From the NCBI GenBank assembly GCA_963734545.1, contig CAVTHO010000005.1, positions 198,886-262,885 of the forward strand: 64,000 nucleotides of DNA. Reading direction: 5' to 3'. The translations under genes and the position numbers were made by a program. Numbering within the stretch: position 1 is the first letter of the stretch; the number at the start of each line of letters is the position of its first letter. This DNA comes from an uncultured Spirochaetota bacterium (GTDB taxonomy: Bacteria > Spirochaetota > Spirochaetia > SZUA-6 > Fen-1364). A model generated the notes under the pieces. That model saw nothing but the letters and a program-made list of their open reading frames with translations, did no database searches and was not told the DNA's origin. Positions 2,325 through 18,179 of the stretch are shown in pieces.

Positions 2325-4435
2325 ACCCGGGCAAGACCCTTCTGCGTCGTCTGGGCAGACTCAAGATCTCGGCAAAGGTCAGCGCGGTGTCGATCGTCAT
2401 CGTGCTCTTCCAGGGCATTCTCTCCATGGTCGGGGTGAGCGTGCTCATCACCCAGACCAACCTGGCCACGTTTCACGCTCAGCTGGAACGCACGGCGCAC
2501 TCGGTGGAGTCTTTCATCGACTCCACCAAGAGCGATCTCGCCGTCAAGGCCAACCTGCTGGCGGGGCAGCAGAATATCATCGATTACACGGACTACGACC
2601 TGCGCAATCTCCTCCTGCAGGAGCTCTCCATCATGCGACTGCCCCTGAAGGTGGACGCGTTGTGCATCGTGAATGCCAATCGTGAGCCTGTCGCAGCGAT
2701 CGGGGAGCGGTCCCTTCGCGAGTCGTTCACCCGCCAGTCGCTCGTGATAAACTGGTGGGAAGGGAACCCGCTGTTCATCGCCCCCTACGAAGACCAGATC
2801 CACCTCTGGGCGCTCAGCCCCATCGTCCAGGCAAAAAAGGTCATCGGCGTGCTCGGTGTCGGGCTCAACATGGATTCCAATTTCATCAACAGGATCGAGT
2901 CGATCAACAACGCGGCGATCCTGCTTTCCTGGCAGAGAAAAATATTCGTCAGCGGCACGCTTCCCGAGACCTTCTTCGAAGGGTTCGTGAAGATAGCCCG
3001 GGTCACGGACCCGGGGGAGCAGGCCACCGCGCAGCGGGCCGGAGGGCGCTACGTTGTTTCCACTTCGACGGCACCGAGCCTCAGGGGGCTCCTCGTGCAC
3101 TGCTTCCTGGATACGGGGGACTCGAGCAGGCTCCTGGCCAGCTACCGCGCCTTCTCACTCGGATTTCTCTTCGTGGTCATCGTGCTCGGCTTCCTGACCT
3201 CCCTCCTGCTGTACCGGTTCACGTTCCTCACTCCCTTCCGGCTTTTCAATGACGCCATCCGCAGCATTTCCGCGGGAGACCTCGGCTACCCGATTGCGAA
3301 AATGGGGGAAGACGAGTTCGGCGACCTGGCCCGGTCCTTCGAGGACATGACGAAGAGCCTGCGGGCAAGAGAGAAGGAGCTGGCCGAGCTGGGCAAGTAC
3401 AATGCCCTGGTTCTCTCCAATGTCAGCTCGGGCATTCTCACGATCGCCTTCGACGGCATCATCACGGCCATCAATCCGGCCGCCTGCGCGCTGCTGGGTC
3501 TGGACGAATCGGACAGCGGGACGGGACGGGCCCTGAGGGATATGTCGATTCCACGGGAGCTCACGCGCCTCATCGACGAAAGCCTTCACGCGGAATCCCC
3601 GGTCGCCGTGCGGGAGATCAAGTCCGAGATCGAAGGCTCGGCGCGCGTGCTGTCCGTCTCCACCTCACCGTTCCTTTCGCAGCACAATACCAAGCTCGGT
3701 ATCATCGTGATCATCGCCGACGTCACCCATGAGAAGGAGCTGGAGCAGAAGCTCGAGCTCTCCTCCCGCATGGCGGCCATGGGAGAGATGGTGGCAGGCG
3801 TTGCCCACCAGATACGCAACCCGCTGGCCATCATGAAGGTTTCCGCCGAGCTCCTGCGCGACCACATCGAAGCCTCCGCGGGCGGCGCCCAGCCCCACCG
3901 GCTGGCCTCCATGATCGTGAACGAGGCGGACACCCTCGGCGCAGTGGTATCCAACTTCCTTGATTTCGCCCGGCCGCACGCGGTCAAAAAGGAACCCGCA
4001 TCCGTGGACGAGATCCTGCGCCGCGTCATAGACGTGCTCCCCCTGGCGAGCTTCCCGGGCACGACTGTCACATGCCGCTTCGCCTCCGACCTGCCCCGGG
4101 TGGCGCTGGACAAGAGCCTCATCGAGCAGGCGTTCCGGAACCTCCTGATCAACGCGCTGGAGGCCTCCCCGGTCGGGCAGCCGGTGTGCGTGAGCGCGTG
4201 GAAGGATGACGGCCGGGTCGCGGTGGAGATACGTGATTCGGGCAATGGGATGGACGAGGCGACCCAGAGACGGATCTTCAACCCGTTCTTCACCACCAAG
4301 AGCGATGGGACCGGCCTGGGGTTGTCCATCGTGCACCGGATCGTGGAAAGCCACGGCGGGCGGATCGAGATGGAATCCGCGCCCGGCAGGGGGACGACAT
4401 TCCGCGTGTTCCTGCAGGAGGAACGGGTTCAATGA
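2321..4435 (+). CDS. Sensor histidine kinase (2 TM, periplasmic Cache-like domain, HAMP, PAS, HisKA, HATPase_c)
   Basis: Two hydrophobic segments flank an extracytoplasmic domain of about 250 aa. It has a HAMP-like linker, a PAS-like segment, an H-box (VAGVAHQIRNPLAIM) and N/G1/G2 boxes (NLLINALEA, DSGNGM, GTGLGLS). It is ATGA-coupled to both neighbours. Confidence 0.9.
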   Translation: MNPGKTLLRRLGRLKISAKVSAVSIVIVLFQGILSMVGVSVLITQTNLATFHAQLERTAHSVESFIDSTKSDLAVKANLLAGQQNIIDYTDYDLRNLLLQELSIMRLPLKVDALCIVNANREPVAAIGERSLRESFTRQSLVINWWEGNPLFIAPYEDQIHLWALSPIVQAKKVIGVLGVGLNMDSNFINRIESINNAAILLSWQRKIFVSGTLPETFFEGFVKIARVTDPGEQATAQRAGGRYVVSTSTAPSLRGLLVHCFLDTGDSSRLLASYRAFSLGFLFVVIVLGFLTSLLLYRFTFLTPFRLFNDAIRSISAGDLGYPIAKMGEDEFGDLARSFEDMTKSLRAREKELAELGKYNALVLSNVSSGILTIAFDGIITAINPAACALLGLDESDSGTGRALRDMSIPRELTRLIDESLHAESPVAVREIKSEIEGSARVLSVSTSPFLSQHNTKLGIIVIIADVTHEKELEQKLELSSRMAAMGEMVAGVAHQIRNPLAIMKVSAELLRDHIEASAGGAQPHRLASMIVNEADTLGAVVSNFLDFARPHAVKKEPASVDEILRRVIDVLPLASFPGTTVTCRFASDLPRVALDKSLIEQAFRNLLINALEASPVGQPVCVSAWKDDGRVAVEIRDSGNGMDEATQRRIFNPFFTTKSDGTGLGLSIVHRIVESHGGRIEMESAPGRGTTFRVFLQEERVQ

Positions 4436-5784
4436 AACGGATTCTCATTGTGGACGACGAGCAGAACATGGTGGCCGCGATGGAAATGCTCTTCCAGGGC
4501 GAAGGGTACGAAACGACAACGGCGAAGCACGGCGGCGAAGCCCTCGAAATCGTTCGCGGGGGCGAGCGGTTCGACGTCATACTTTCAGACATGCGGATGC
4601 CCGACATGGGCGGGACCGACCTGCTCCGGGCACTTCACGAGGAGGCCATCACCACTCCGTTCGTCCTGATCACGGCGTACGGGACGATTGAGAATGCAGT
4701 GGAAGCCATGAAGCTTGGTGCCGTCGACGTCGTCACCAAGCCCTTCAACAAGGAGGTGCTCCTGGCGCTGATTTCCCGTATCTGCCGCATCGAATCGCTC
4801 AAGGAGGAGAACAAGCTTCTGAAAGAGGCGCTGCGGCTCGACTCATTCATGTATGACTCCGAGGTCATGAGAGAGATCCAGTCGGTGATCGACAAGGTGG
4901 GACCCGTTCCGACGCCGGTGCTCATCACGGGGGAAAGCGGGACGGGGAAGGAGATCGTGGCCCGGCTGCTGCACGAGCGCTACGCGGGAGAGTTCGAGCG
5001 CAAGCCATTCGTGTCCGTGAATTGTCCTGCCGTGCCTGAGACGCTGTTGGAGAGCGAGCTTTTCGGCTACCGAAAGGGAGCGTTCACGGGCGCAACGAGC
5101 GACTACAAGGGGAAGGTGGGAATAGCCGATGGCGGGACGCTCTTCTTCGACGAGATCGGGGACCTCCCGCTGGGTCTTCAACCCAAGCTCCTGAGGCTGC
5201 TGGAGAACAAGACATACGAGCCGCTGGGCACCGGTGCCCCGCGCAAGGTGGATATCCGCGTGCTCTGCGCAACGAACAAGGAATTGAAAAAACTGGTGCA
5301 TGAAGGCGGATTTCGGGAGGATCTCTTCTACCGGATCAATACGATCACGATCGCCCTCCCCCCGCTGCGGGAGCGCGCGACGGACATTCCTCTTCTGGCC
5401 GGGCTGTTCCTGGAGCAATTCTCCCACGAGCTGGGCAAGAGAATCAGCGGCTTCGGAAAGGGAGCGCTGGAGAAACTCTGCCGCTATGCCTGGCCAGGGA
5501 ATGTCCGCGAGCTGAAAAATGTCATTGAGCGCGCTGTTGTGCTCTGCACCGGTGTCACGATCGAGCAGAAGGACCTTCCCGCGGAGCTGCGGGAAGAATA
5601 CCATGCCAGTTTCGAAGCGGATGGCAACAAGCTGGCAAACCTGGAGCGCCGGCTGCTGGTCGAAGCCCTCGAAAAAAGCGGGTGGAATGCGTCTGAGGCG
5701 GCACGAAAGCTCGGCATTACCCGAAACACCATCCGTTATCGCATCCAGAAGTACGATCTTGATGGTGGCCGAATTTCACCATAG
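4432..5784 (+). CDS. Sigma-54-dependent response regulator (NtrC family: REC + AAA+ + Fis-type HTH)
   Basis: REC domain (ILIVDDE, ILSDMRMPDMGG), Walker A GESGTGKE, sigma-54 contact loop GAFTGA, Walker B LFFDEIG, and a C-terminal HTH (AARKLGITRNTIRYRIQKY). Confidence 0.92.
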   Translation: MKRILIVDDEQNMVAAMEMLFQGEGYETTTAKHGGEALEIVRGGERFDVILSDMRMPDMGGTDLLRALHEEAITTPFVLITAYGTIENAVEAMKLGAVDVVTKPFNKEVLLALISRICRIESLKEENKLLKEALRLDSFMYDSEVMREIQSVIDKVGPVPTPVLITGESGTGKEIVARLLHERYAGEFERKPFVSVNCPAVPETLLESELFGYRKGAFTGATSDYKGKVGIADGGTLFFDEIGDLPLGLQPKLLRLLENKTYEPLGTGAPRKVDIRVLCATNKELKKLVHEGGFREDLFYRINTITIALPPLRERATDIPLLAGLFLEQFSHELGKRISGFGKGALEKLCRYAWPGNVRELKNVIERAVVLCTGVTIEQKDLPAELREEYHASFEADGNKLANLERRLLVEALEKSGWNASEAARKLGITRNTIRYRIQKYDLDGGRISP

Positions 5785-5948
5785 GTGGTTATTTTGAGCC
5801 ACTTCATGATTTACGAAAAAGATGTTTTACCGATTTTTCCTAGCGCACAATGTCCCTTACTTACGTTTTGGTTTTGAATCATACTACTTAGCCTGCAAGG
5901 CAGCCCCTTTTCGTGACCATTCGAGACATCCGCATGAATATGCAACTT

Positions 5949-5964
5949 TGGCATTCTTATTGCA
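5949..5964 (+). promoter_or_regulatory. Sigma-54 (-24/-12) promoter upstream of xylF
   Basis: TGGCATtcttaTTGCA matches TGGCAC-N5-TTGCW with correct GG/GC spacing. It lies about 30 nt upstream of the GTG start (5994) and RBS AAGGAGG, directly downstream of the sigma-54 activator gene. It is embedded in a perfect 9-bp inverted repeat (AATATGCAA 5937-5945 / TTGCATATT 5960-5968). Confidence 0.6.
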
Positions 5965-5993
5965 TATTTCTTGCTACACCAAGGAGGTGTAAG

Positions 5994-7097
5994 GTGAAAA
6001 GAGCATTTCTCACTCTCATCGTCCTCGTGCTGTCCCTGTCGGTTTGTGCCCTCGCTTTCGCGAGCGGAGGAGCCGAGGGAGGCAAGCCCGTGGCCAAGGG
6101 CGCGAAGATAAAGATCGGACTGTCATTCTCCGATTTCGCGACAGAGCGCTGGCCGGTAGAGCAGGCACTGCTCACCAAGCTCGGCTACGACAAGGGCGCC
6201 CAGGTCATATCACAGGTCGCCAACCATGACGAGAAGCTGCAGAACGACCAGATCGAGAACATGGTTCTCCAGGGGGTCAATGCACTGATCATCGTGGCGG
6301 AAAACGGCGATTCGGCGGCAACCGCGGCGGCAGCGGCGCACGACGCAGGCGTCAAGGTCATTGCCTATGACCGCCTGATCAAGACTCCGAAGATCGACGC
6401 GTACATCTCCTTCGACAACACGGAAGTCGGTCGCCAGCAGGCCTCGGGGGTTCTGAAGGTCAAGAACAGCGGCAACTTCGTCCTTCTCGGCGGAAGCCCC
6501 ACGGACAACAACGCCATCCTGTTCAGGAACGGCCAGATGGAGATCCTGAAGCCCCTCATCGACAAAGGGCAGATCAAAATCGTGGCTGATCAGTGGGTGG
6601 AGAACTGGGAGCCGTCCAACGCAACCAAGACAATGGAGAACATCCTCACGGCCATCAACAACAAGGTCGACGCGGTTGTCGCCTCCAATGACGGCACGGC
6701 GCTCGGCGCTCTGCAGGCCATGCAGGCCCAGGGTCTTGCCGGCAAAGTGCCCATCTCTGGCCAGGACGCCACCGCGCCCGGCTGCAAGTCCATCGTCGAG
6801 GGCGGGCTGACCGTGACCGTGTTCAAGGACGTGCGCAGGCTCTCTCCTCTTGCCATCGACCTTGCCATCGACCTCGTGACCGGCGTGAAGACGGGTCCCG
6901 TGGGACAGCTCAAGATGTACAACCTCGCTGACCTCACGCTGAACAACAAGCTCACCGGACAGGTGCCGTTCTACCAGCTGCCGGTCGTCCAGGTAGACAA
7001 GAACAACGTGTACGATGTAGTGATAAAGAGCGGATTCCAGAAATACGACGACGTCTACAGGGACATTCCCGAAAGCAAGCGCCCGGCGAGGCCCTGA
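5994..7097 (+). CDS. xylF: D-xylose-type ABC transporter substrate-binding protein
   Basis: Strong collinear resemblance to E. coli XylF as I recall it (IENM..GV..L.I, KV.AYDR.I, YISFDN..VG, GGSP.DNNA.LFR.GQM..LKP, DAVVASND, ISGQDA). The GTG start at 5994 is preceded by AAGGAGG, giving signal peptide VKRAFLTLIVLVLSLSVCALAFA. The ORF-track ATG at 5913 is probably too far upstream. Confidence 0.88.
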   Translation: MKRAFLTLIVLVLSLSVCALAFASGGAEGGKPVAKGAKIKIGLSFSDFATERWPVEQALLTKLGYDKGAQVISQVANHDEKLQNDQIENMVLQGVNALIIVAENGDSAATAAAAAHDAGVKVIAYDRLIKTPKIDAYISFDNTEVGRQQASGVLKVKNSGNFVLLGGSPTDNNAILFRNGQMEILKPLIDKGQIKIVADQWVENWEPSNATKTMENILTAINNKVDAVVASNDGTALGALQAMQAQGLAGKVPISGQDATAPGCKSIVEGGLTVTVFKDVRRLSPLAIDLAIDLVTGVKTGPVGQLKMYNLADLTLNNKLTGQVPFYQLPVVQVDKNNVYDVVIKSGFQKYDDVYRDIPESKRPARP

Positions 7098-7115
7098 CCG
7101 CACGACGCTGAATTG

Positions 7116-7147
7116 AAAACGGGGAAGCGCCGCTTCCCCGTTTTTTT
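7116..7147 (+). terminator. Intrinsic terminator/attenuator hairpin between xylF and xylG
   Basis: aaaaCGGGGAAGCgccGCTTCCCCGttttttt: a perfect GC-rich stem, a 3-nt loop and a T7 tract, placed right after the binding-protein gene. Confidence 0.7.
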
Positions 7148-7158
7148 AGGAGGAGCAC

Positions 7159-8700
7159 GTGGAGAGCGACGTCATACTGGATATTTCACACGTGACCAAG
7201 ACATTTCCGGGCGTCACCGCTTTGAACGACGTCTCCCTGCAGATCCGCCGCGGCGAGATCCACGGTTTGTGCGGGGAGAACGGCGCGGGCAAGTCCACGC
7301 TTGTGAAGATACTCTCCGGCGTCTACCCGTATGGCACCTACGAGGGCGCCATTACCTTCCAGGGCAAGGAGCTGCGTTTCGAGCAGAAATCCATCAGGGC
7401 TGCAATCGAGGCGGGTATCGCCATCGTGTACCAGGAGCTGACCCTCATCCCGAAGATGACCGTCGGGGAGAACATTTTCCTTGGCAAGGAACCCGTGGAG
7501 GGCCGCCGCATCAACCGCTCGCGCCTGTACGCGCAGAGCAGGGACATCCTGGCCAAGTACGGCCTGGACATCCTCCCGCAAGCCCGGGTCCTGGACCTCG
7601 GCGTGGGCAAGCAGCAGATGGCGGAGATCGCCAAGGCTCTTTCGGAGGACGCGAAGCTCCTCATCCTGGACGAGCCGACTTCCGCCCTCACGCAAACAGA
7701 GGTCCTCAAGCTCATGGAAATCCTGCGGGGCCTGAAGGCGCATGGCGTCACCTGCATCTACATTTCCCATAAGCTGGAGGAATTTTTCGGCATTACGGAC
7801 CGTGTGACGGTGCTGCGCGATGGAAAGCTCATCTCCACCATGGAAACAAAGGACGCGAGCACGGAGACGCTCGTCAAGTTGATGGTCGGCCGGGAGATGA
7901 CGGACCGGTTCCCGCCGAGCCAGCGCACTCCCGGGGAGGTGATCCTCTCCGTGCGCGGGCTGCACGCGGAAGATCCCCAGGTTCCCGGCAGGGAAATCCT
8001 GAAAGGGGTGGACTTCGACCTCCGCAGGGGGGAGATCCTCGGCATCGCCGGCCTCATGGGCTCCGGCAGAACGGAGCTCGTGACCACGATCTTCGGCGAA
8101 TACGCCACGATCACCGCGGGCAGCATCGTCCTGGAAGGACAGCAGGTGCACATCGGCTCGGCCCGGGCTGCCATGGATCACGGGATCAGCCTCGTGCCGG
8201 AAGACCGCAAGCAGCTCGGACTGGTGCTCATCCAGTCAGTGCTGAAAAACATTGCCCTGCCGAACCTGAACAGGTTTGCCGCTCTGCTGCGCATCGACAA
8301 GCAGGCAGAGCTGCACGAAACGGAAAAGTACGCCAAGAGCCTTGCCATCAAGACCCCGTCCCTGAGCGTCGCCGTGGACAACCTGAGCGGCGGCAACCAG
8401 CAGAAGGTTGTCATCGCAAAGTGGCTCATGTCCGCGCCCAAGGTTCTCATCCTGGATGACCCCACCCGCGGCATAGACGTGGGAGCCAAGTTCGAGGTCT
8501 ACAAGCTCATGAACGAGCTCGCGGCTCAGGGCATGGCCATCATCATGATCTCCTCCGAGCTGGAGGAGGTGATCGGCATGAGCGACAGGGTCGTCGTCAT
8601 GTGCGAGGGCCGGTCGAACGGCGTGCTCGCGCGGAGCGAAGCCACACAGGAGCGCGTGATGACGCTCGCTACAGGCATCACCACAAATGGAACGAGGTAA
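7159..8700 (+). CDS. xylG: Xylose/ribose-type ABC transporter ATP-binding protein (two fused NBDs)
   Basis: GTG start after TAGGAGGAG. Two NBD halves: GENGAGKST / LGVGKQQMAEIAKAL / LILDEPT / YISHKL, and a second half with LSGGNQQKVVIAKWL / LILDDPTRGIDV. Confidence 0.9.
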   Translation: MESDVILDISHVTKTFPGVTALNDVSLQIRRGEIHGLCGENGAGKSTLVKILSGVYPYGTYEGAITFQGKELRFEQKSIRAAIEAGIAIVYQELTLIPKMTVGENIFLGKEPVEGRRINRSRLYAQSRDILAKYGLDILPQARVLDLGVGKQQMAEIAKALSEDAKLLILDEPTSALTQTEVLKLMEILRGLKAHGVTCIYISHKLEEFFGITDRVTVLRDGKLISTMETKDASTETLVKLMVGREMTDRFPPSQRTPGEVILSVRGLHAEDPQVPGREILKGVDFDLRRGEILGIAGLMGSGRTELVTTIFGEYATITAGSIVLEGQQVHIGSARAAMDHGISLVPEDRKQLGLVLIQSVLKNIALPNLNRFAALLRIDKQAELHETEKYAKSLAIKTPSLSVAVDNLSGGNQQKVVIAKWLMSAPKVLILDDPTRGIDVGAKFEVYKLMNELAAQGMAIIMISSELEEVIGMSDRVVVMCEGRSNGVLARSEATQERVMTLATGITTNGTR

Positions 8701-8703
8701 AGC

Positions 8704-9918
8704 ATGAGCTCAGTCAGCCTGCCCGCACAACGGAAGAGTCTCTTCGCGTCCAGCACCCAGACCGTCACGATGATCGCGGCCCTGCTGATCATCTGGCTCC
8801 TGTTCGGAGCGCTCACGAACTTCACATTCCTCTCGCCCCGGAACCTCTCCAACCTGTTCCGGCAGATGACGATCATCTCGTTTCTGGCCTGCGGCATGGT
8901 ATTCGTGATCGTCACGGGAAGAATCGACCTCTCGGTGGGATCGGTGACAGGGTTCATCTCCGCCATCGCCGCCGTGCTCCAGGCCCGGACCTTCCCCGAC
9001 TTCCTGCCGAAGCTGTTTCCCGCCCTCGCGGGAACCCCGTGGATAGGAGTCATCTCCACTATTGCGACCATCGTCATTGCAATGAGCGTTGGCATCCTGG
9101 TCGGCATGTTCCAGGGCTCCATCATCGCCTACCTCGGGGTGCCTGCATTCATGGTCACACTGGGCGGCATGCTCATGTTCCGCGGCGGCGTCCTTGGCGT
9201 GACCCGTGGCGAATCGGTCATGCCCATCGAGAACTCCCTGCGCCTGATAGCCCAGGGATACCTCTCCGACTGGCTTGGCCTGATCTTTGCGGCGGCAGCC
9301 GCCGTCGTCATCTTTATCATGACATTCAGCACCCGTGCGCGGCAGCAGCAGTTCGGGTTCGCGCTCGCCCCGTTCTGGAAGGACCTTGCCAAGGCCATGG
9401 CCGCTTCGTTTGGCCTCTTTGTCTATGTCGTGATCATGAACATCTACCGCGGCGTGCAGACCCCTGTGCTCCTCCTGGCGATCGTCGTTGTCATCATGTC
9501 CTACCTGGCCAATTCCACCCGGTTCGGCAGGTATTCCTACGCCATCGGAGGCAACCCCGAGGCCACGCGGCTCTCAGGGGTAAACATAAAAAAGAACCTC
9601 TTCCTCATATTCGTGCTCATGGGCGCCCTTTGCGCCGTGGCCGGCATCGTGCTCACCGGCTACGTGGCGGCGGGGACAATCGGGGCAGGCACCAACTACG
9701 AGCTGGATGCCATCGCCTCGTGCATCCTCGGCGGCACCTCCCCCCTGGGCGGCAGTGGAACGATCATCGGCGCCATGCTCGGCTCCCTCATCATCGCAAG
9801 CCTTGCCAACGGCATGAGCGTCATGAACGTCGCACCGTTCTGGCAGTACATCGTCCGCGGCCTGGTGCTCATCCTCGCCGTCTATCTGGACGTGGCAACC
9901 CGGAAAGGTCGACGGTAG
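8704..9918 (+). CDS. xylH: Xylose-type ABC transporter permease (BPD_transp_2)
   Basis: Polytopic membrane protein with the CUT2 permease core (GRIDLSVGS, RFGRYSYAIGGNPEATRLSGVN, ELDAIASCILGGTS.LGGSGT). It starts 4 nt after the xylG stop. Confidence 0.88.
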   Translation: MSSVSLPAQRKSLFASSTQTVTMIAALLIIWLLFGALTNFTFLSPRNLSNLFRQMTIISFLACGMVFVIVTGRIDLSVGSVTGFISAIAAVLQARTFPDFLPKLFPALAGTPWIGVISTIATIVIAMSVGILVGMFQGSIIAYLGVPAFMVTLGGMLMFRGGVLGVTRGESVMPIENSLRLIAQGYLSDWLGLIFAAAAAVVIFIMTFSTRARQQQFGFALAPFWKDLAKAMAASFGLFVYVVIMNIYRGVQTPVLLLAIVVVIMSYLANSTRFGRYSYAIGGNPEATRLSGVNIKKNLFLIFVLMGALCAVAGIVLTGYVAAGTIGAGTNYELDAIASCILGGTSPLGGSGTIIGAMLGSLIIASLANGMSVMNVAPFWQYIVRGLVLILAVYLDVATRKGRR

Positions 9919-9987: not shown

Positions 9988-11301
9988 ATGGCCTTCACGG
10001 TCCTGATTGTGGACGACGAAAGGGAGATGTGCCTCTCCCTTTCGGAGATCTTTTCCTCCCACGGTTTCTCCTCGGTCACGGCGACCGATCCCCATGCGGT
10101 ACCCGCCCTCATCGAGAAGCACGGGGTGGGGCTCATCCTCCTGGACATTCACATGCCCCAGCAGAGCGGCATCGATCTGCTGAAGCTCATCAAGAGCCGG
10201 GACCGTTCCCTGCCGATCATCATGATCACCGGCTACCCTTCCATCGAGAATGCGGTGGAGTCCATGCGCTATGGCGCGCACAACGTATTCGTCAAGCCGC
10301 TCAAGATCCGCGAGCTCGTGAAGGAGATCGAGCAGATCCGGGATTCCCGGGCGCGCGCAGGAGCCGACTCCGGAGAAGCCGCCCTGGTGACGGGGAACCC
10401 GGAGATGCTCCGCATCCTGACAGAGATCGACCGCGTGGCCCCCACGGACGCCCCGGTCCTTATCACGGGCGAAAGCGGCACGGGAAAGGAGCTGGTGGCA
10501 GGCGCCATCCACCGCCGGAGCACGCGGCGGGACGGGCCATTCATCAAGGTGAATTGCGCCTCCATACCGGACACCCTGCTGGAGAGCGAGATGTTCGGCC
10601 ACGAGCAGGGCGCATTCACCGATGCGGTCCGCCGCCATATCGGAAAACTGGAGCTCGCCGATCGCGGCACGCTCTTTCTCGACGAGATCGGAGATATGAC
10701 GCTCTCCACCCAGCCCAAGCTGCTCCGGGTCCTGCAGGACGGCGAGTTCCAGAGGCTGGGAGGGGTGGAAACCTTCCGATCCAGCGCGCGGATCATCGCC
10801 GCAACCAACAACGACATCGGTGAGCTCATGGGAGAAAAGGGGTTCCGTGAAGACCTCTTCTACCGGCTTTCGGTGGTGACGATCCACCTGCCTGCTCTGC
10901 GCGAGAGAAAGGACGACATCGAGAGGCTTCTCAGCCATTTCCTGGGGCTTTTCAGCAGGAAATACTCGAGGGACATCGCGTCCGTGTCCGAATCGGTGCG
11001 GGACATCCTTTTCCGGCACGAATGGCCGGGCAACGTCCGGGAGCTGCGCAACTGTGTCGAGCGCGCGGTGATTTTCTGCGATTCTCACGAGCTCCGGGAG
11101 GAGCATCTGCCCGCCCAGTACGTGAAGCTGAGAGACCAGGGCTTCCCGGACAGCCTGGAGTCCATCTATGAGAAACTCTCCCGGCAGAGGATCTCCGAGG
11201 CGCTCGCAAGGACCAGCGGGGAGAAGCAGAAGGCGGCAAAGCTCCTCAATATCAGCAGGAAAACGCTGTACAACAGGATGAAGAAGCTCGGGATGGAATG
11301 A
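9988..11301 (+). CDS. Sigma-54-dependent response regulator (NtrC family)
   Basis: REC domain (VLIVDDE, ILLDIHMP), Walker A GESGTGKE, GAFTDA variant of the GAFTGA loop, LFLDEIG, and a C-terminal HTH (AAKLLNISRKTLYNRMKKLG). Confidence 0.9.
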   Translation: MAFTVLIVDDEREMCLSLSEIFSSHGFSSVTATDPHAVPALIEKHGVGLILLDIHMPQQSGIDLLKLIKSRDRSLPIIMITGYPSIENAVESMRYGAHNVFVKPLKIRELVKEIEQIRDSRARAGADSGEAALVTGNPEMLRILTEIDRVAPTDAPVLITGESGTGKELVAGAIHRRSTRRDGPFIKVNCASIPDTLLESEMFGHEQGAFTDAVRRHIGKLELADRGTLFLDEIGDMTLSTQPKLLRVLQDGEFQRLGGVETFRSSARIIAATNNDIGELMGEKGFREDLFYRLSVVTIHLPALRERKDDIERLLSHFLGLFSRKYSRDIASVSESVRDILFRHEWPGNVRELRNCVERAVIFCDSHELREEHLPAQYVKLRDQGFPDSLESIYEKLSRQRISEALARTSGEKQKAAKLLNISRKTLYNRMKKLGME

Positions 11302-13134
11302 AAGACGCGGACGCGACGCCCCTCCTGCAGATGCGCGGCATCAGGGTCTCCTATGGGAACATTCCCGCCCTGCGGGACGCGGACTTCGACCTGTACCGCG
11401 GGGAAATACATGCGCTGGTGGGAGCCCATCGGGCCGGGCAAGTCCTCGTTGGTGAAGCTGCTGAGCGGGGCGGTGCGCAAGGACGCGGGTGAAATAATCT
11501 TCGACGGCCGGCGGATGGAATCGTTCACCCCGCGCACCGCGATCAGGAACGGCATCGGGATCGTCTACCAGCACCTCAACATCATCCCCTCTCTGAGCGC
11601 CGCGGAGAACATCTTCGCCGGGCGGCTCCTGAAGGCCGGGATGCTCAGACTCAACCATCATCGGATGCGCGACGAGGCCGCCGCTCTCTTTGCCCGGCTC
11701 TCGTTCCCCCTGGACGTGGATGTTCCGGTGCACCGGCTCACCGTTGCGGCGCAGCACATGGTGGAGCTGGCGCGGGTACTCTCCTTCAATCCGCGCATCC
11801 TGATCCTGGACGAGGTGTCCAACAAGCTCACCCCTGAGGAGATGGAGCGCATCTATCCGATGCTGCTGCAGTTCAAGGCCGACGGCAAGAGCGTGGTGTA
11901 CATCTCGCACAACATGGATGAGATCTTCCAGTTCGCCGACCGCGTGACCATCCTCAAGGACGGCCGCAGGATGGACACGGAGCGCATCGAGGACCTGGAT
12001 CGCGTCAAGCTCATCAAGCTCACCTACTCGTTCGTGCTCAGCCGCGAGGAGCTGGGCAGACAGAACCTCGAGCTCTACAGCCTGAAGCTGTACAATGAAA
12101 ACATCATCAAGAACATTCCCGTCGGCGTGATCATCCTCAACGCGGAGCAGGGAATCTACCTCATCAATTACGCGGCCACGAAGATACTGGGGCTCGAGGC
12201 AGGGGTGGTCGGCCGGCAGTTCGCGGAGGTGGTGCGCCCGGATGAGTTTCCGGACATGGCTGATGTCATGGAAATGATCGGGTCACGACAGGAGCTGTTC
12301 CTGAAAGAAGCCCCTTACCGTGGAGAGAAGATTCTGAAGGTCTCGGTTTTCCCTTTCCGCGACGAGGACTACGACTTCCTGGGAACCATCATCCTGGTGG
12401 AGGACATATCCCGGGAGCGTTCCATCGAGGAATACCTCCTGCGCACGGAAAAGCTTGCGTCCACGGCGGAGCTGGCGGCAGGAGTGGCGCACGAGATCAA
12501 CAACCCCCTGGGCATCGTGCAGAACTACGTTGAGCTGCTGAAGCTGCGGGACCTCGACGCCGACTCCCGGGTGAAGCTGGAGAAGATCGAAAACGAGGTG
12601 AACCGGATCGAGAAGATCGTCGGAAGCCTTCTTTCGTTCTCGAAGTTCAGCGACGTGAGTTTTCACGAGATCGACGTCGCAGAGGTTCTCGATGAGGTGA
12701 TGCTTCTCCTCGCGCATCGATTCACGGAGAAGGGCATAGCGGTGGACAGGAAGATGCCGCCGGATTCGGCGCTCATCCTGGGTGACGAGAACAAGCTGAA
12801 GCAGCTTTTCCTCAACCTCTTCTCCAACAGCATCGAGGCCGTTGCGGATGGCGGAGCAATCCACGTGGATCTGGCCGTGGAAGAGGCGCGGGGGACCGTG
12901 GAGTTCCTGATTACGGACAACGGGTGCGGGATTCCTGCCGAGATCGCCGGTCGGATCTACGATCCTTTCTTCAGCACGAAGAAAAGCAGGAAGAACGCGG
13001 GACTCGGGCTTTCCATCTGTCAGAGGATCGTGGAGCTGCACAACGGGATGATCACCTGCACAAGCGTGCCCGGCAGATCCACAAGCTTCCTGGTGAGGTT
13101 CCCTCGAATCGTTCCCGGCGCGTCCCGTGTGTAA
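11298..13134 (+). CDS. ABC-type nucleotide-binding domain fused to a PAS-histidine kinase (one frame break at about 11433-11442)
   Basis: ORFs 11298-11492 and 11353-13134 join into one protein if one nt is removed at GCC GGG [C] AAG. This gives Walker A GAHRAGKS, Q-loop IVYQH, signature-like LTVAAQHMVELARVL, Walker B ILILDEVS and H-loop YISHNMDE. A PAS-like region, H-box AAGVAHEINNPLGIV and HATPase_c (DNGCGI, NAGLGLS) follow. No TM segment is visible. It is ATGA-coupled to the activator gene. Confidence 0.75.
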
Positions 13135-13263
13135 GCCGTTACCCATGAAACAGGCCCGGCGGAAAGCATATTTCCCATGGATCCGGGGCGGCGGGTATGA
13201 CACATCGCGGTGATTGCAAGTTCTTGCCCCGCAATAAGTTGGAAGAGGCGCACGGAGCCGTCG

Positions 13264-13279
13264 CGGCACGCTTCTTGCT
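13264..13279 (+). promoter_or_regulatory. Sigma-54 (-24/-12) promoter upstream of the binding-protein gene
   Basis: cGGCACGcttcTTGCT matches TGGCACG-N4-TTGCW. It lies about 48 nt upstream of ATG 13327 (RBS AAAGGAG), downstream of the activator/kinase pair. Confidence 0.6.
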
Positions 13280-13326
13280 TGGTACCCGCATCCGGCCGCA
13301 TGACGGCCACTATGAAAGGAGTCCAT

Positions 13327-14283
13327 ATGAAGAGACTGGTTCTGATCGTATGCGCCTTGCTGATGTTCGGGCTCGCGCTGGGCTTTGCGGGCGGTGCCAA
13401 GGAGGCCAAAACCTTCGAGGTGGCCGTGTCGCTGCCCGGTTCCGTCGAGTTCTTCAGCGTCGAGCGAAGAGGGATGGACAAGGCTGCTGCGGAGTTCGGC
13501 ATCAAGCTCACCTACTCTGACGCCGAATGGGACGCGGGCAAGCAGCTCTCCCAGGTGGAAAATTTCGCCGCAAAGAAGGTCGACCTGATCCTCTTGTGCG
13601 CGGCCGATAATCAGGCGCTCCTGCCAGCGGTGAAAGTATGCAAGGATGCCAAGATCCCCCTCATTACCTTTACCAACGTGATCGGGCCCAACCCGGACGG
13701 AAAGCTTGACGGGGTTCTCTCGTTTATCGGCACAAACGAAGTGACCATCGGACGCCTGATTGGCCAGATGGCGGAAAAGGCCCTGGACGGAAACCCGGCA
13801 AACATCGTTCTCATAGAAGGGACCCCGGGTACTCCCCCGCAGAGAATGCGGACCCAGGGATTCAAGGAAATCGTGGACAAGCACCCCAACTGGAAGATCG
13901 TGTATTCACAGGCCATTACCGGCTGGACCAAGGAAGGCGCGCTGGCAGCAATGGAGGCTTTCCTGCAGTCCGGGCAGAGGGTGGACCTGGTTGCCTGCCA
14001 GTGGTACGGCGGCGCCACCGCGGCCGCTCAGGCGCTGAAGGAGAAAGGGTACAGCCAGAACAAGGTGACCATTACAGGCTACGAGTTTTCCAAGGAGCTT
14101 GCCCCGTTCATCAAGGACGGAACGGTGGACATGACTGCCAACTACTCCATCGAGGATACGGGATACAAGGCGGTCCAGGCTGCTGCTAAGTATCTGAAGG
14201 GCGAAAAGATCCCCTCGTTCACCGAGGTGGTGCCCTACATTGTCTCAAAGGAAAACGTGGACTCGGTCGTACCGGAGATGTAG
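13327..14283 (+). CDS. Ribose-type (Peripla_BP_4) sugar ABC transporter substrate-binding protein
   Basis: Start chosen at ATG 13327, after AAAGGAG and in frame with ORF 13210. Signal peptide MKRLVLIVCALLMFGLALGFAGG. RbsB-like body (QVENFAAKKVDLILL, IPLITF, IVLIEGTPGTPPQRMR, KVTITGYEF). Confidence 0.85.
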   Translation: MKRLVLIVCALLMFGLALGFAGGAKEAKTFEVAVSLPGSVEFFSVERRGMDKAAAEFGIKLTYSDAEWDAGKQLSQVENFAAKKVDLILLCAADNQALLPAVKVCKDAKIPLITFTNVIGPNPDGKLDGVLSFIGTNEVTIGRLIGQMAEKALDGNPANIVLIEGTPGTPPQRMRTQGFKEIVDKHPNWKIVYSQAITGWTKEGALAAMEAFLQSGQRVDLVACQWYGGATAAAQALKEKGYSQNKVTITGYEFSKELAPFIKDGTVDMTANYSIEDTGYKAVQAAAKYLKGEKIPSFTEVVPYIVSKENVDSVVPEM

Positions 14284-14313
14284 GCCGGCGCTTCGACAGT
14301 CTGCACGCGGGGC

Positions 14314-14350
14314 GCGGTCCCTGCCCGCACGGGCAGGGGCCGCATTTTTT
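14314..14350 (+). terminator. Intrinsic terminator/attenuator hairpin after the binding-protein gene
   Basis: GCGGTCCCTGCCCG-ca-CGGGCAGGGGCCGC (one G-U pair) followed by aTTTTTT. The arrangement matches the one after xylF. Confidence 0.6.
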
Positions 14351-14356
14351 CAAAAA

Positions 14357-15610
14357 ATGAGGGACATAATGGGACCCTGGATCGCCACGCAACTGTTCGT
14401 CGGAAAGAACGAAACGTCGGCCGCCACCCGCGCGCGCGTCGGGGATGCCATTGCCCGGGTGCGCGAGCTGGCACGTGTCGACGCGGTCATGATCTGGCCT
14501 TCAGCCGCGCCCGGGCTCACCGAGGAGCTGGTGCGTGCCGCACGGAATTGCGGCATTTCGCCCTTTCTCTGGTTTCCGATCCTGGCGGACGTCCCGGGCG
14601 CGCCCGTGCCCCTCGATTCCCTCACCCGGAACAGCGACGGCTCGAGAGGGAACGGCTCAATCGGCGCATGGGAGGGTCTGGCCGGCGGTGAAGAGAACTT
14701 CCTTTTTTCCTGCCCCAATGCCGCAGGAAATCTGGGCTCCGTATTCCGGACATACGAGTCGCTCCTGTCCTCTCTCGACGTGGGAGGGGTCATGCTGGAC
14801 AGGATCCGTTTCCCCTCACCCGCCGCGGGCTGGGAATCCCTCTTCTGCTGCTTCTGCGAGTCTTGCCGCGACGGCTTTCAGGAGTTCGCTGGTCTCTCCC
14901 TCGATTCGATGCGTCAACGCGCCCAGGCCTTCATGACCCATATTCGGGAACAGGGCCTCTCGGAGCTGCACGCCGTCTGGACGGCACCCGGCGCGCTATG
15001 GACGGCGGCCGGACTGGAAAAGCTGGCCGCATTCCGCAGCCGGTCGATCACATCAGTGGTCGGGCGCTTCAGCTCCCTTGCGCGCGCACGCGGCCTGGCC
15101 GTCGGGCTCGATCTATTCAGCCCTTCGCTTGCGCCGCTGGTCGGCCAGGACTACGAGGCCCTGAGCAGCCTTTGTGACTGGATCAAGCCGATGACCTACT
15201 GCAACGCCGTGGGCCCGGCAGGTTTGCCCCTGGAGATCGCAAGCCTGTGGAAGGCGCTGCGTGCTCTGCATTCCGGCGCCGATGAATCGTCGGTCGGGGA
15301 CCTCCTGCGCAATGTCTTTTCCTGGCAGCTTCCCGGTGCGGCGGAGGACCTGCTCCGCAGCGGTCTTTCCACGGAGGTCATCTCCTCAGAGCTGGAGATG
15401 ATCGGACGAATGAGTCTCGCCTCCCGGACAAAAATCTACGCGGGCATCGAGGCGGTGAGAATGCCCGAGTTCGGAATCGATGTCACCTCCGGCATGCTGG
15501 CGCGCAGCCTGCAGCAGGTACGTCCGCCCGCCGACGGGATTGTGGCCTCCTGGAACCTGCTTCATGTCCCGGAAGAGAACCTCAGGCTCATCGGTGAGCT
15601 GAAAGGGTGA
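14357..15610 (+). CDS. Hypothetical cytoplasmic TIM-barrel, glycoside-hydrolase-like protein
   Basis: No signal peptide. Alternating beta/alpha pattern. Cys cluster FCCFCESCRDGF recalls the C-x-C-x-x-C zinc site of GH42-type barrels (from memory). It sits inside the ABC operon, and its stop overlaps the ATPase start (GTGA). Start is ATG 14357 or ATG 14369. Confidence 0.5.
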   Translation: MRDIMGPWIATQLFVGKNETSAATRARVGDAIARVRELARVDAVMIWPSAAPGLTEELVRAARNCGISPFLWFPILADVPGAPVPLDSLTRNSDGSRGNGSIGAWEGLAGGEENFLFSCPNAAGNLGSVFRTYESLLSSLDVGGVMLDRIRFPSPAAGWESLFCCFCESCRDGFQEFAGLSLDSMRQRAQAFMTHIREQGLSELHAVWTAPGALWTAAGLEKLAAFRSRSITSVVGRFSSLARARGLAVGLDLFSPSLAPLVGQDYEALSSLCDWIKPMTYCNAVGPAGLPLEIASLWKALRALHSGADESSVGDLLRNVFSWQLPGAAEDLLRSGLSTEVISSELEMIGRMSLASRTKIYAGIEAVRMPEFGIDVTSGMLARSLQQVRPPADGIVASWNLLHVPEENLRLIGELKG

Positions 15611-17112
15611 GCGCGAGCATGGAAACGCTCCTTCGTCTTTCCGGCATCAGCAAGAGTTTTCCCGGTGTGCAGGCGCTGGACGCCATCGACCTGGAGATCG
15701 GCAGGGGTGAGGTGCATGCCCTTCTCGGGGAAAACGGCGCGGGGAAGTCGACCCTGGTAAAGGTCATCGCAGGGGTCCATCCCAGTGACGGGGGAACGCT
15801 GGTCTTCGAGGGTCGCGAGCGGCATTTCGCATCCCCTGGTGAGGCCTCCGCGGCCGGCATCGCCATGATCCATCAGGAGACGAGCCTCATCCCCACGCTG
15901 ACGGTCATGCAGAACGCGTTCCTCGGCATCGAGCGGAGGTCGTTCCTCAATGTGATCGACGATCGGCGCACCCGACGTGAATTCCTGGCTGCCTGCGAAA
16001 GACTCTCGTTCAAGCTGCCCCCGGCGCGGCTGGCCCGCGAATTGAGCGTGGCCGAGCAGAAGATGACGGAGATCCTGAAGGCGATGCTCCGCAATGCGTC
16101 CTTTCTCATCATGGACGAGCCTACCGACGCCCTTTCGGATGCCGAGATCGCGCACCTCTTCCGCATCATCCAGGACCTGAAGAGGGACCGGGTCACCGTG
16201 CTCTACATCACGCACTACCTGGACGAGGTGTTCCGCGTCGCGGACCGGATCACCGTGCTGCGGGACGGCAGGAAGGTGGGCACACGGAACGCGGCGGAGC
16301 TTGACAGGAATGCCATCGTCAGAATGATGATCGGCCAGGAGATCGAGGAGGGAGGAGAGTCCCGGCCCCGCGCGGCGCGCGGGGCAGAGGCCCTCCGCGC
16401 GGAAAACCTCGTCCGGGGGCGCGTGGTGAACGGTATTTCCTTCACCGCCTACCAGGGAGAGATACTGGGCATTGCCGGCGTGCTGGGCTCGGGAAAGACG
16501 GAGCTTGCCCGGCTGCTCTTCGGCGCCGACAGGCCCGATGCCGGGGCAATCTTCGTCGACGGGCGCGTACGGAGAATCGGCTCACCAACGGAGGCGGCAG
16601 CACAGGGTATCGGGATGGTGCCCGAGGACAGGAAGCGCCTCGGTCTTCTGCTGGGACACGAAGTGTACAAGAACATCACCATCGCCGCCGTGTCGAGGTT
16701 TTCCCGCGGGATATTCATACGCAAATCGGAAGAGCTGGCGGCGGTGGACAGGGTAGTGAAGAAGCTTTCGATCCGGATCAGGGGTCCTGCGCAGGCCGTC
16801 AAATACCTGAGCGGGGGCAACCAGCAGAAGGTGGTGATCGCAAAATGGCTCGTGGCTGACAAGAAAGTACTGATCATGGACGAACCCACCCGGGGAATCG
16901 ACGTGGGCTCCAAGATCGAGATCCACCGGATCATGAGAGCTCTGGCCGATGCGGGAGCCTGCATCATATTCATCTCCGCGGAGGTTCCCGAGATCGTGCG
17001 GGTGTCGGACAGGATCCTCGTCATGCAGGGAGGCGGAATCGTCGCCGAGCTGGAACGGGGGGCGACCCAGGAGCAGGTGGTCCACATGATGCTGAAAGGA
17101 AACGGTCAATGA
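15607..17112 (+). CDS. Sugar ABC transporter ATP-binding protein (two fused NBDs, RbsA-like)
   Basis: GENGAGKST, LSVAEQKMTEILKAM, LIMDEPT, YITHYL; second half LSGGNQQKVVIAKWL, LIMDEPTRGIDV. Confidence 0.9.
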   Translation: MSASMETLLRLSGISKSFPGVQALDAIDLEIGRGEVHALLGENGAGKSTLVKVIAGVHPSDGGTLVFEGRERHFASPGEASAAGIAMIHQETSLIPTLTVMQNAFLGIERRSFLNVIDDRRTRREFLAACERLSFKLPPARLARELSVAEQKMTEILKAMLRNASFLIMDEPTDALSDAEIAHLFRIIQDLKRDRVTVLYITHYLDEVFRVADRITVLRDGRKVGTRNAAELDRNAIVRMMIGQEIEEGGESRPRAARGAEALRAENLVRGRVVNGISFTAYQGEILGIAGVLGSGKTELARLLFGADRPDAGAIFVDGRVRRIGSPTEAAAQGIGMVPEDRKRLGLLLGHEVYKNITIAAVSRFSRGIFIRKSEELAAVDRVVKKLSIRIRGPAQAVKYLSGGNQQKVVIAKWLVADKKVLIMDEPTRGIDVGSKIEIHRIMRALADAGACIIFISAEVPEIVRVSDRILVMQGGGIVAELERGATQEQVVHMMLKGNGQ

Positions 17113-18078
17113 AAGAGATGGCGGGTCTCCGACAGTGGGTGGCGGCGCGGCGCGGCGGCTTCTCCATGAAGAAATACGGCCTGATGATCGGATTCATCTT
17201 CATGGGGATAGTCATTTCGATCATCACCCCCAACTTCCTCACTCCCACCAACCTCCTGAACATTTTGCGTCAGAGCTCGATCGTGGGCGTCATGGCGATC
17301 GGCACGGCGTTCGTCATCATTGGCGGCGGCTTCGACATTTCGGTCGGCTCCCTGCTGGCCCTTGCCGCCGCGATGAGCCTCAAGCTCCAGCAGTCCATGC
17401 CGTGGTACATCGTCATCGTCGTCGTGCTCGCCGTCGGCGGCCTGGCAGGACTGCTGAACGGCGTGCTGACCGCAAAGGTCCACATCGTGGCCATCATCAC
17501 GACCCTCGGGACCATGACGATCCTGCGCGGCCTCACCTACCTGTACACGGGCGGTTATCCGATCACCGGATCCTCCACGGAGTTCCAGTTCATCGGCTCG
17601 GGATACATCGGGCCCATCCCCTTCCCGATCATCATCTTCCTCGCCATGGTGATCCTCTGGCAGTTCATCCTCAAGAAGACCACCCTCGGCAGATATGCCT
17701 GCGCGGTGGGCGGCAACAAGGAGGCGACCCGACTCTCAGGCGTTCCCGTGGACTTCTACCACATCATGACCTTTGTCATCGGCGGGATCATGGCCGCAAT
17801 GTCCGGGCATCATCTATGCGGCGCGCCTGAACGCGGCGACTCCCCTTGCAGGGCAGGGCTACGAGCTCGACGCCATTGCCTCCTGCGTCATCGGCGGCAC
17901 GAGCGTCTCAGGCGGCGAAGGGAGCATCGTGGGAATCCTGATCGGCGTGCTCCTGCTGAATATCGTCAACAACATGTTCAACCTGCTCGGGATCCAGGTC
18001 TACATCCAGTACCTCGTAAAGGGAGTCATCATCCTGACCGTGGTGGGGTTCGACTCCTACTCGCGCTACAAGCAATAG
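17109..18078 (+). CDS. Sugar ABC transporter permease (RbsC-like), one frame break at about 17802-17811
   Basis: ORF 17109 (..GGFDISVGS.., RYACAVGGNKEATRLSGV, IGGIMAAMSG) continues in ORF 17773 (IIYAARLNAATPLAGQGYELDAIASCVIGGTSVSGGEGS...) after removing one nt at TCC GGG [C] ATC. Confidence 0.8.
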
Positions 18079-18179
18079 GCCGGGACAGCTTCGCGGGCGC
18101 TGTCGTTGGTCAGATAACCATCACGATTGACCATTTTTTGCTATTTTTATGTCCTTATTATTGACAAAATGACGTTTTA

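Follow-up and report, generated by a model that had tools for sequence, protein, structure and literature searches.

A 64,000-nucleotide stretch of DNA from an uncultured Spirochaetota bacterium (contig CAVTHO010000005.1; hereafter the window) carries, at 11298-13134 of the forward strand, the gene for a sensor histidine kinase in which a single ABC-transporter nucleotide-binding domain (NBD) is fused in front of a PAS domain and a HisKA-HATPase_c kinase core. Comparison with relatives indicates that this fusion is genuine and represents an ancient, conserved family, and not an artefact of a frameshifted window copy, since more than 115 unbroken homologues share its architecture. The kinase is constantly paired with a sigma-54-dependent response regulator, a CUT2 sugar transporter and a -24/-12 promoter, a pairing which suggests that the system is a dedicated switch for the adjacent transporter operon. 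With modest confidence, we lean towards a reading in which these proteins form a family of soluble kinases whose input is an ATP-binding NBD, derived once from the N-terminal half of a CUT2 sugar-transporter ATPase of the ribose/xylose type, and in which this NBD engages the cognate transport machinery to switch the operon.

The repaired kinase of 611 aa is assigned by Pfam to ABC_tran at residues 25-174 (1e-23), PAS at 267-371, HisKA at 391-450 (6e-14) and HATPase_c at 495-602 (2.5e-25), which is exactly the series expected in a preliminary description made from the letters of the window. The NBD (residues 1-240, 11298..12018, + strand) is of the CUT2 N-half type, with Walker A at residues 42-49, the Q-loop glutamine at Q91, a signature-like segment at L147-Q152, Walker B D171-E172 and the H-loop histidine H204. 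In NCBIfam, kinase residues ~5-245 align to the first ~240 positions of RbsA, YtfR, AlsA, AraG, MglA and XylG (E 4e-58 to 1e-41). The preliminary description had recognised a complete single NBD of the RbsA/XylG N-half type, and these matches together with the Pfam hit bear it out; the individual motifs that it had listed were likewise all found, namely Walker A GAHRAGKS, Q-loop IVYQH, the signature-like LTVAAQHMVELARVL, Walker B ILILDEVS, H-loop YISHNMDE and the H-box AAGVAHEINNPLG. A family-specific linker (LTYSFVLSREEL...YNENIIKN) precedes the cytoplasmic PAS domain (residues ~265-372, 12091..12414, + strand; Pfam PAS_10 2e-9, PAS_9 3.7e-7), in which P352, F353, D355, G362 and D369 are invariant. 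The kinase core (12469..13104, + strand) consists of DHp/HisKA followed by HATPase_c, and its phospho-acceptor His398 is encoded at 12490-12492; residues H398, N506, N510, D540, G542, G544, G568 and G570 are invariant in 35 members of the family. Residues 259-603 align to AtoS (9e-73). All NCBIfam scores of the kinase are far under the equivalog cut-offs, and the kinase falls outside the AtoS equivalog NF008468, with 245.6 bits against a cut-off of 646 over residues 259-603 only.

The highest 19-residue Kyte-Doolittle mean in the kinase is 1.25, so that no transmembrane segment is seen, as had been noted before, and the kinase is therefore soluble. The earlier conclusion that the NBD is the sole candidate sensor does not follow, as the conserved cytoplasmic PAS domain is a second candidate. 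An AlphaFold2 (AF2) model was run on P0001, an unbroken homologue 94% identical overall to the repaired kinase, with a 35-sequence alignment. In this model the NBD has a predicted local distance difference test score (pLDDT) of 85-92 (residues 6-235), the linker at 241-262 has low pLDDT, and the PAS domain, a two-helix DHp and a CA domain follow. Foldseek matched the modelled NBD to those of LptB, FtsE and MacB (target-normalised TM scores of 0.80-0.85, root-mean-square deviation ~3 Å) and the rest of the model to YF1-type PAS-kinases and ThkA. The nearest solved structures to the kinase core are ThkA 3a0r (5e-40) and ZraS, and no chain in the PDB spans both the NBD half and the kinase half.

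The start codon of the kinase gene and the stop codon of the response regulator gene, a TGA, share the ATGA at 11298-11301, the coupling that the preliminary description had reported. In the window the kinase is spread over two open reading frames (ORFs), 11298-11492 in frame A and 11353-13134 in frame B, the latter open from 11302. A one-nucleotide break had already been suspected within 11433-11442. For frameshift calls we used as reference L001, a relative 91.6% identical to the window in DNA over 8.4 kb, and its blastn alignment places a single surplus G at 11436-11438 (+ strand), where the window has a GGG run and relatives have GG (window GGGCCGGGC, L001 GGGCC-GGC). The site lies within Walker A, between GAHRAG and KSS. 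When the G is removed, the 611-aa protein has the Walker A sequence GAHRAGKSS, the same as in P0001 and in P0394, a near-identical and also unbroken protein. The public record of the same genome contains the break as well, in the form of P0404, a product of 574 aa which corresponds to frame B and begins MRWWEPIGPGKSS.

Among the matches listed from 5.8 billion proteins there were 120 to the kinase, nearly all of them ~605 aa long with ABC_tran, HisKA and HATPase_c, and the more than 115 unbroken homologues with this architecture, down to 50% identity, come from independent assemblies. A second search used the family-specific junction (residues 215-385) against 1.84 billion representatives of 50%-identity clusters, and returned 91 proteins at E<=1e-10; in about 70 of the 150 best matches the protein is ~600 aa long and has the junction at the same position, and identity reaches down to ~25%. 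The ten most distant representatives that were scanned all have the same architecture (10/10). In a genome-collection scan with an alignment of residues 1-400, L005-L007 were the true family members among the matches listed, and metagenomes were scanned for loci with a junction-only alignment. Named members belong to Spirochaetia, Spirochaetaceae and Treponemataceae metagenome-assembled genomes and to Ca. Vecturithrix, a range that rests on few names. They are labelled 'AtoS' by JGI and 'ATP-binding cassette domain-containing protein' or 'ATP-binding protein' by NCBI. Ca. Vecturithrix (L004) has two NBD-kinase cassettes adjoining each other. Its second kinase (L004 16155-18029, - strand) also has ABC_tran, PAS, HisKA and HATPase_c and is only ~30% identical to the first in the NBD, which points to an old split inside the family.

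That the window copy is split into two ORFs might suggest that the fusion was created by gene calling or assembly from a stand-alone NBD gene beside an ordinary PAS kinase. We give this explanation a negligible chance: the split lies inside Walker A and not between domains, unbroken single-ORF homologues abound in independent assemblies, and no other segment of the protein is as family-specific and conserved as the NBD-PAS junction. Whether the copy in this particular genome still works is a different question, as the permease gene of the same module is also broken (CC in the window against C in L001 at 17803, giving ORFs 17109-18164 and 17773-18078), a frameshift that the preliminary description had missed. 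The two breaks are those recognised in the window, where GC3 frame plots (GC content at third codon positions) and ORF tiling were too noisy to count others. Each break adds one base to a short run of G or C, and the window copy is either mis-assembled or very recently inactivated. If both frameshifts (kinase 11436, permease 17803) were real mutations, the module would be a recently decayed pseudogene set and the system would no longer be working in this genome, an outcome which we regard as a possibility on the doubtful side. Two independent frame-breaking insertions in one functional module, and the recurrence of breaks in the public record of the same genome, speak for such decay. Against it, one-base gains in short G/C runs are a typical assembly or long-read error, the members in L005, L116, L120 and L124 are split likewise in metagenome assemblies, and a near-identical unbroken allele exists in P0394. 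Furthermore, the ratio of nonsynonymous to synonymous substitution rates (dN/dS) is 0.04-0.11 (0.076 in the NBD and 0.106 over the kinase as a whole, both against L001), with no sign of relaxed selection. The homopolymer nature of the gains, the similar splits in other members and the lack of signs of relaxed selection favour assembly error as the source of the breaks.

The nucleotide-binding site of the NBD is preserved to a high degree. Among 115 close members, the Walker A lysine (Lys48) and the Walker B residues Asp171 and Glu172 are found in 115/115, and Gln91 and His204 in 114/115 each. The window kinase conforms to the Walker A pattern GxxxxGK[ST] with GAHRAGKS, whose Gly and Lys are invariant in the 115 close members and in 66 distant representatives; in 111 of the 115 the usual second glycine of GxxGxGKS is an arginine, Arg45. 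The distant representatives retain the Walker B Asp in 65, the catalytic Glu in 61 and the Q-loop Gln in 61 of the 66. A canonical LSGGQ signature is absent, the kinase having LTVAAQ and the family the consensus L-[ST]-x3-Q, and the same degeneracy is found in the N-halves of the two ATPases encoded in the window (LSVAEQ and LGVGKQ). Judged by the conservation of these residues, ATP binding looks essential throughout the family, and efficient hydrolysis perhaps not. Neighbour-joining groups the kinase NBDs in a single clade whose sister group is the N-halves of CUT2 ATPases; mean identity to these N-halves is 32%, as compared with 22% to the C-halves. The kinase NBDs are a lineage of their own and no recent duplicates of the ATPase encoded alongside.

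The surroundings of the gene were compared in ~45 loci in all, 12 taken from precomputed gene tables and 44 typed with hidden Markov models built from those. A sigma-54 response regulator lies directly upstream of the NBD-kinase in 32 of the 32 loci that could be scored, and the full CUT2 set of a Peripla_BP_4 binding protein, an ATPase and a BPD_transp_2 permease is present in 21 of the 24 loci with enough flank, the three misses being contig ends. Two layouts recur: regulator, kinase, promoter, binding protein, an optional further gene, ATPase and permease in 12 loci, the window among them, and promoter, ATPase, permease, binding protein, regulator and kinase in 9 loci. In the window the regulator (9988..11301, + strand) is of the NtrC type, with Pfam matches to Response_reg (2e-25), Sigma54_activat (6.5e-67) and HTH_8 (6e-12). 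Its orthologues keep the phospho-acceptor Asp53 in 27/27, and have GAFT[D/N/G]A as their GAFTGA loop, in which Phe and Thr are conserved. The sigma-54 promoter element CGGCACGCTTCTTGCT (13264..13279, + strand) lies upstream of the binding-protein gene, 48 nt from its ATG. The GG-N10-GC pattern has 4 matches in 64 kb where 1.74 are expected, which is not significant by itself, and the element carries weight because its position is conserved across loci. An element was found at the equivalent place in L001, L002, L004 (two cassettes), L005, L085-L090, L092 and 21 metagenome loci with the full transporter set, and before the first transporter gene in all loci but L091; in loci with an upstream transporter the -12 sites read GTGC. 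Both the near-consensus promoter and the wiring of the kinase to a sigma-54 activator, a sigma-54 promoter and a sugar ABC operon had been proposed from the window alone, and they reappear in this wider set of loci. The comparison thus strongly supports conservation of the regulatory wiring that would link NBD-kinase, sigma-54 activator, sigma-54 promoter and CUT2 operon. Two further observations concern the same region: a hairpin in the 5' untranslated region, GGCCG-CATGA-CGGCC (13289-13315, + strand), lies between promoter and ribosome-binding site and is kept in L001 and L002, and conserved blocks upstream (GATTTCCCAYGG and TGCAAGTT...CGCA) are candidate activator binding sites.

A mechanism by which the NBD would engage the transport machinery can be outlined. 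The kinase would be a homodimer, as other HisKA kinases, and would so present two NBDs. These would bind ATP and engage either the coupling helices of the CUT2 permease, which in some genomes might be an orphan permease, or the ATPase of the transporter. Substrate-dependent conformational cycling of the transporter could then pass through the conserved linker and the PAS domain to the DHp helices, His398 would phosphorylate Asp53 of the regulator, the sigma-54 promoter would open and the transporter would be induced. In a more specific form, which we put forward tentatively and consider rather unlikely, the NBD-kinase dimer would replace the ATPase on a CUT2 permease dimer, either that of the transporter itself or, in some genomes, one of a dedicated orphan permease that comes with a binding protein of its own, to form an importer-like receptor in which the conformational cycle would carry external sugar binding across the membrane. 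If so, periplasmic binding protein, permease and NBD-kinase would together be the receptor, and a kinase lacking any membrane segment would report the external sugar through phosphorylation.

Several observations bear on this proposal. Five loci have beside the kinase an extra permease, with or without a binding protein, that has no ATPase of its own: L087 (9842-12254, - strand), L090 (10854-12020, - strand), L085 (14555-16550), L109 (6658-8590) and L115 (11153-12301, - strand). The additional permeases in L087 and L090 are orthologues of each other, at 53% identity, and differ from the permeases of the transporters; no sigma-54 site was found before either of them. These orphan permeases are candidates for a dedicated sensing permease. 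Co-evolution was assessed by mirror-tree analysis of 27 complete loci. Plain correlations gave no NBD-specific signal, and only the partial ones, which control for PAS, kinase-core and response-regulator distances, gave a weak one: the NBD has values of 0.21 with the N-half and 0.32 with the C-half of the ATPase, which no more than 2 of 500 permutations reach; against the binding protein its value is 0.26 and against the permease 0.13. The kinase core has values of -0.03 to 0.05. Together, the single origin from CUT2 ATPases, the orphan permeases and the residual co-evolution are hints that favour coupling of the NBD to the transporter.

A number of points weigh against such coupling. The residual co-evolution is weakest for the permease, and it could reflect parallel constraints on homologous NBD folds with no contact needed. 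Since a complete ATPase is encoded at every locus, the transporter has no need of a further NBD. Of the 66 distant representatives, in which the signature is also more degenerate, just 34 retain the H-loop His, so that canonical ATP-sandwich homodimerisation and hydrolysis by the kinase NBD may be weak. The ligand might in truth be sensed by the conserved PAS domain, and two genes of the window module are frameshifted. Most of these points would suit a kinase whose NBD acts by itself as a sensor or switch for nucleotides, responsive to the ATP/ADP ratio or to ATP-driven dimerisation and never touching the transporter, with the PAS domain sensing the imported sugar or a metabolite and the operon being simply its regulon. 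ATP-binding residues that are universally conserved while the H-loop is lost in half of the distant members, the invariant PAS residues, the transporter's own ATPase at every locus and the low permease value of 0.13 are all in keeping with it. We nevertheless hold it to be unlikely, because it leaves unexplained the single, specific origin from a CUT2 ATPase N-half, the near-invariant segment IPSL.A.ENIFAG of the Q-loop and helical subdomain, which lies by the usual permease-docking groove, and the orphan permeases without ATPase beside the kinase in five loci.

A further possibility is that the kinase NBD, with its good Walker A and degenerate signature, forms a pair with the C-terminal NBD of the transporter ATPase, where the Walker A is degenerate and the signature is the canonical LSGGNQQK, and thereby reads ATPase turnover directly, so that the kinase would sense flux. 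The complementarity of motifs is visible in the sequences, and the top partial mirror-tree value is precisely that between the NBD and the ATPase C-half (2/500 permutations). We consider this quite improbable, since the C-half is covalently tied to an N-half partner of its own, a mirror-tree signal between homologous folds can arise without contact, and in L130 and L131 the ATPase has a single NBD with fully canonical motifs, so that the complementarity is not general. The idea that this half-size ATPase of L130 and L131 itself needs the kinase NBD as a partner was rejected, as its motifs are fully canonical and it is of the normal homodimeric type. The reading in which the NBD engages the cognate transport machinery remains the one we prefer.

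Other systems are known in which a transporter informs a regulator. BceS of Bacillus subtilis, a membrane kinase, makes non-covalent contact with the BceB permease of an exporter-type detoxification pump and acts through an OmpR-type regulator and sigma-70. The NBD-kinase resembles it in that a kinase without a ligand-binding domain of its own would use an ABC transporter as co-sensor and induce the operon of that transporter, and differs in being soluble, in having the NBD covalently attached, and in working with a sigma-54 activator and a CUT2 sugar importer. Transporter-dependent kinases of the BceAB-BceS type are cited in passages of PMC12070737 (refs 45-46) and of bioRxiv 10.1101/2020.02.28.969956. 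The NBD-kinase does not belong to the BceS-like class, which has two transmembrane helices, a short loop and a BceAB-type partner, given that it lacks a transmembrane segment and has a CUT2 partner, and the analogy is one of logic only. In the PstSCAB-PhoU-PhoR system a PAS-containing kinase informed by an importer NBD controls the importer's regulon, a likeness to what we propose here. There, the PstB NBD is a separate protein, linked via PhoU to the PAS domain of PhoR, whereas in the NBD-kinase the NBD is fused directly before the PAS domain, and the transporter still has an ATPase of its own. MalK, which uses its C-terminal regulatory domain to sequester the activator MalT, is similar in that an importer NBD doubles as regulator of a sugar regulon, but it acts without phosphorelay and without fusion. 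In CbrA/CrbS (SSS-family domain) and Ks-Amt5 (Amt domain) a histidine kinase has a covalently attached transporter module, and the conformations of a transport protein drive signalling; the fused part in those proteins is a membrane, substrate-binding domain, while in the NBD-kinase it is a cytoplasmic energy-coupling ATPase domain and there is no membrane segment.

The two halves of the protein also have their own relatives. Kinases of the AtoS/NtrB/ZraS class and ThkA share with it the PAS-DHp-CA part and the REC-AAA+-HTH_8 sigma-54 partner, but are without an ABC NBD, and the JGI name 'AtoS' reflects the C-terminal half of the NBD-kinase only. The CUT2 ATPases RbsA, XylG, MglA, AraG and YtfR have an N-half homologous to the kinase NBD, with the same degenerate L-[ST]-x3-Q signature. 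The kinase NBD differs from them in being single, with no C-terminal half, in forming a separate clade, and in its Walker A (G-E/A-H-R/G-A-G-K-S), where His stands for Asn and, in the subfamily of the window kinase, Arg for the canonical Gly. To our knowledge, every established case of transporter-coupled sensing either has the ABC ATPase domain and the kinase on separate proteins or involves fusion of a membrane domain. The preliminary description had been aware of no characterised covalent NBD-histidine kinase fusion; full-text searches of open-access literature, where absence is not proof, found none either, and the one paper on a Treponema kinase that they retrieved concerns a different protein. 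The NBD-kinase fusion thus appears to be an uncharacterised and mis-annotated family, and a form of transporter-linked two-component sensing. It is conserved over roughly a hundred 50%-identity clusters with an intact ATP site, and could explain how a soluble kinase senses an extracellular sugar. It would also offer a genetically tractable system for learning how the conformational cycle of an NBD becomes a phosphorylation signal. On the practical side, members now named 'AtoS' or 'ATP-binding cassette domain-containing protein' are mis-named.

The transporter operon of the window begins with a periplasmic sugar-binding protein of the RbsB-like type (13327..14283, + strand; Peripla_BP_4, Pfam 1.4e-58), whose best NCBIfam match is RbsB at 1.7e-28, under the equivalog cut-off. 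A GC-rich hairpin followed by a T-run (14314..14343, + strand), terminator- or attenuator-like, lies inside the operon between this gene and the next; it has a 13-bp stem with 11 G-C pairs and is followed by ATTTTTT. This is likely a partial terminator that would let the binding-protein message exceed that of the rest of the operon. The next gene (14357..15610, + strand) encodes a 417-aa cytoplasmic, glycoside-hydrolase-like TIM-barrel protein, recognisable at fold level only. The window protein has no sequence match in Pfam, NCBIfam or the PDB, and 7 of 40 homologues match DUF4015. Its AF2 model has a pLDDT of 94, and the best Foldseek matches are the PgaB C-terminal domain, GH14 beta-amylase and GH18, in agreement with the fold previously suggested; its start, formerly put at 14240, is the ATG at 14357. 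The family to which it belongs has invariant or near-invariant cysteines (C115, C161-F-C163-x2-C166), a cluster which suggests a possible metal site, unusual for a glycoside hydrolase. The operon continues with a CUT2 ABC ATPase of 501 aa with two fused NBDs (15607..17112, + strand; Pfam ABC_tran, two matched stretches, 6.5e-52) and a CUT2 permease (17109..18078, + strand; BPD_transp_2), 322 aa long once the extra C at 17803 is removed, which has the EAA-type coupling motif GGNKEATRLSGV. The preliminary description had named binding protein, two-NBD ATPase and permease correctly, apart from the frame of the last.

Directly upstream of the regulator lies a paralogous cassette (2321..9918, + strand) with the same logic and a conventional membrane-type kinase. 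It comprises a HAMP-PAS kinase (2321-4435, 704 aa), a sigma-54 response regulator (4432-5784; REC-AAA+-HTH with a canonical GAFTGA), a -24/-12 element TGGCATTCTTATTGCA at 5949-5964, a binding protein (5913-7097), a XylG-like ATPase (7159-8700) and a permease (8704-9918). Rfam at gathering thresholds gave no RNA family in the window. Downstream of the operon, 18180-20027 (+ strand) encodes a 615-aa protein with a homocitrate/isopropylmalate-synthase-like HMGL domain (58-330), HCS_D2 and a C-terminal Cache/PDC-like domain (468-607), the last recognised as dCache_1 at 4.7e-10, below the Pfam cut-off, with no membrane segment noted. It is an unusual enzyme-sensor fusion, and only the 3' end of its gene aligns in L001 and L093. 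Genes for URO-D (uroporphyrinogen-decarboxylase-like) proteins recur by NBD-kinase cassettes in unrelated loci, at 9008-10135 in L001, at 4349-5614 and 16011-17824 in L086, and at 6394-7440 in L090.

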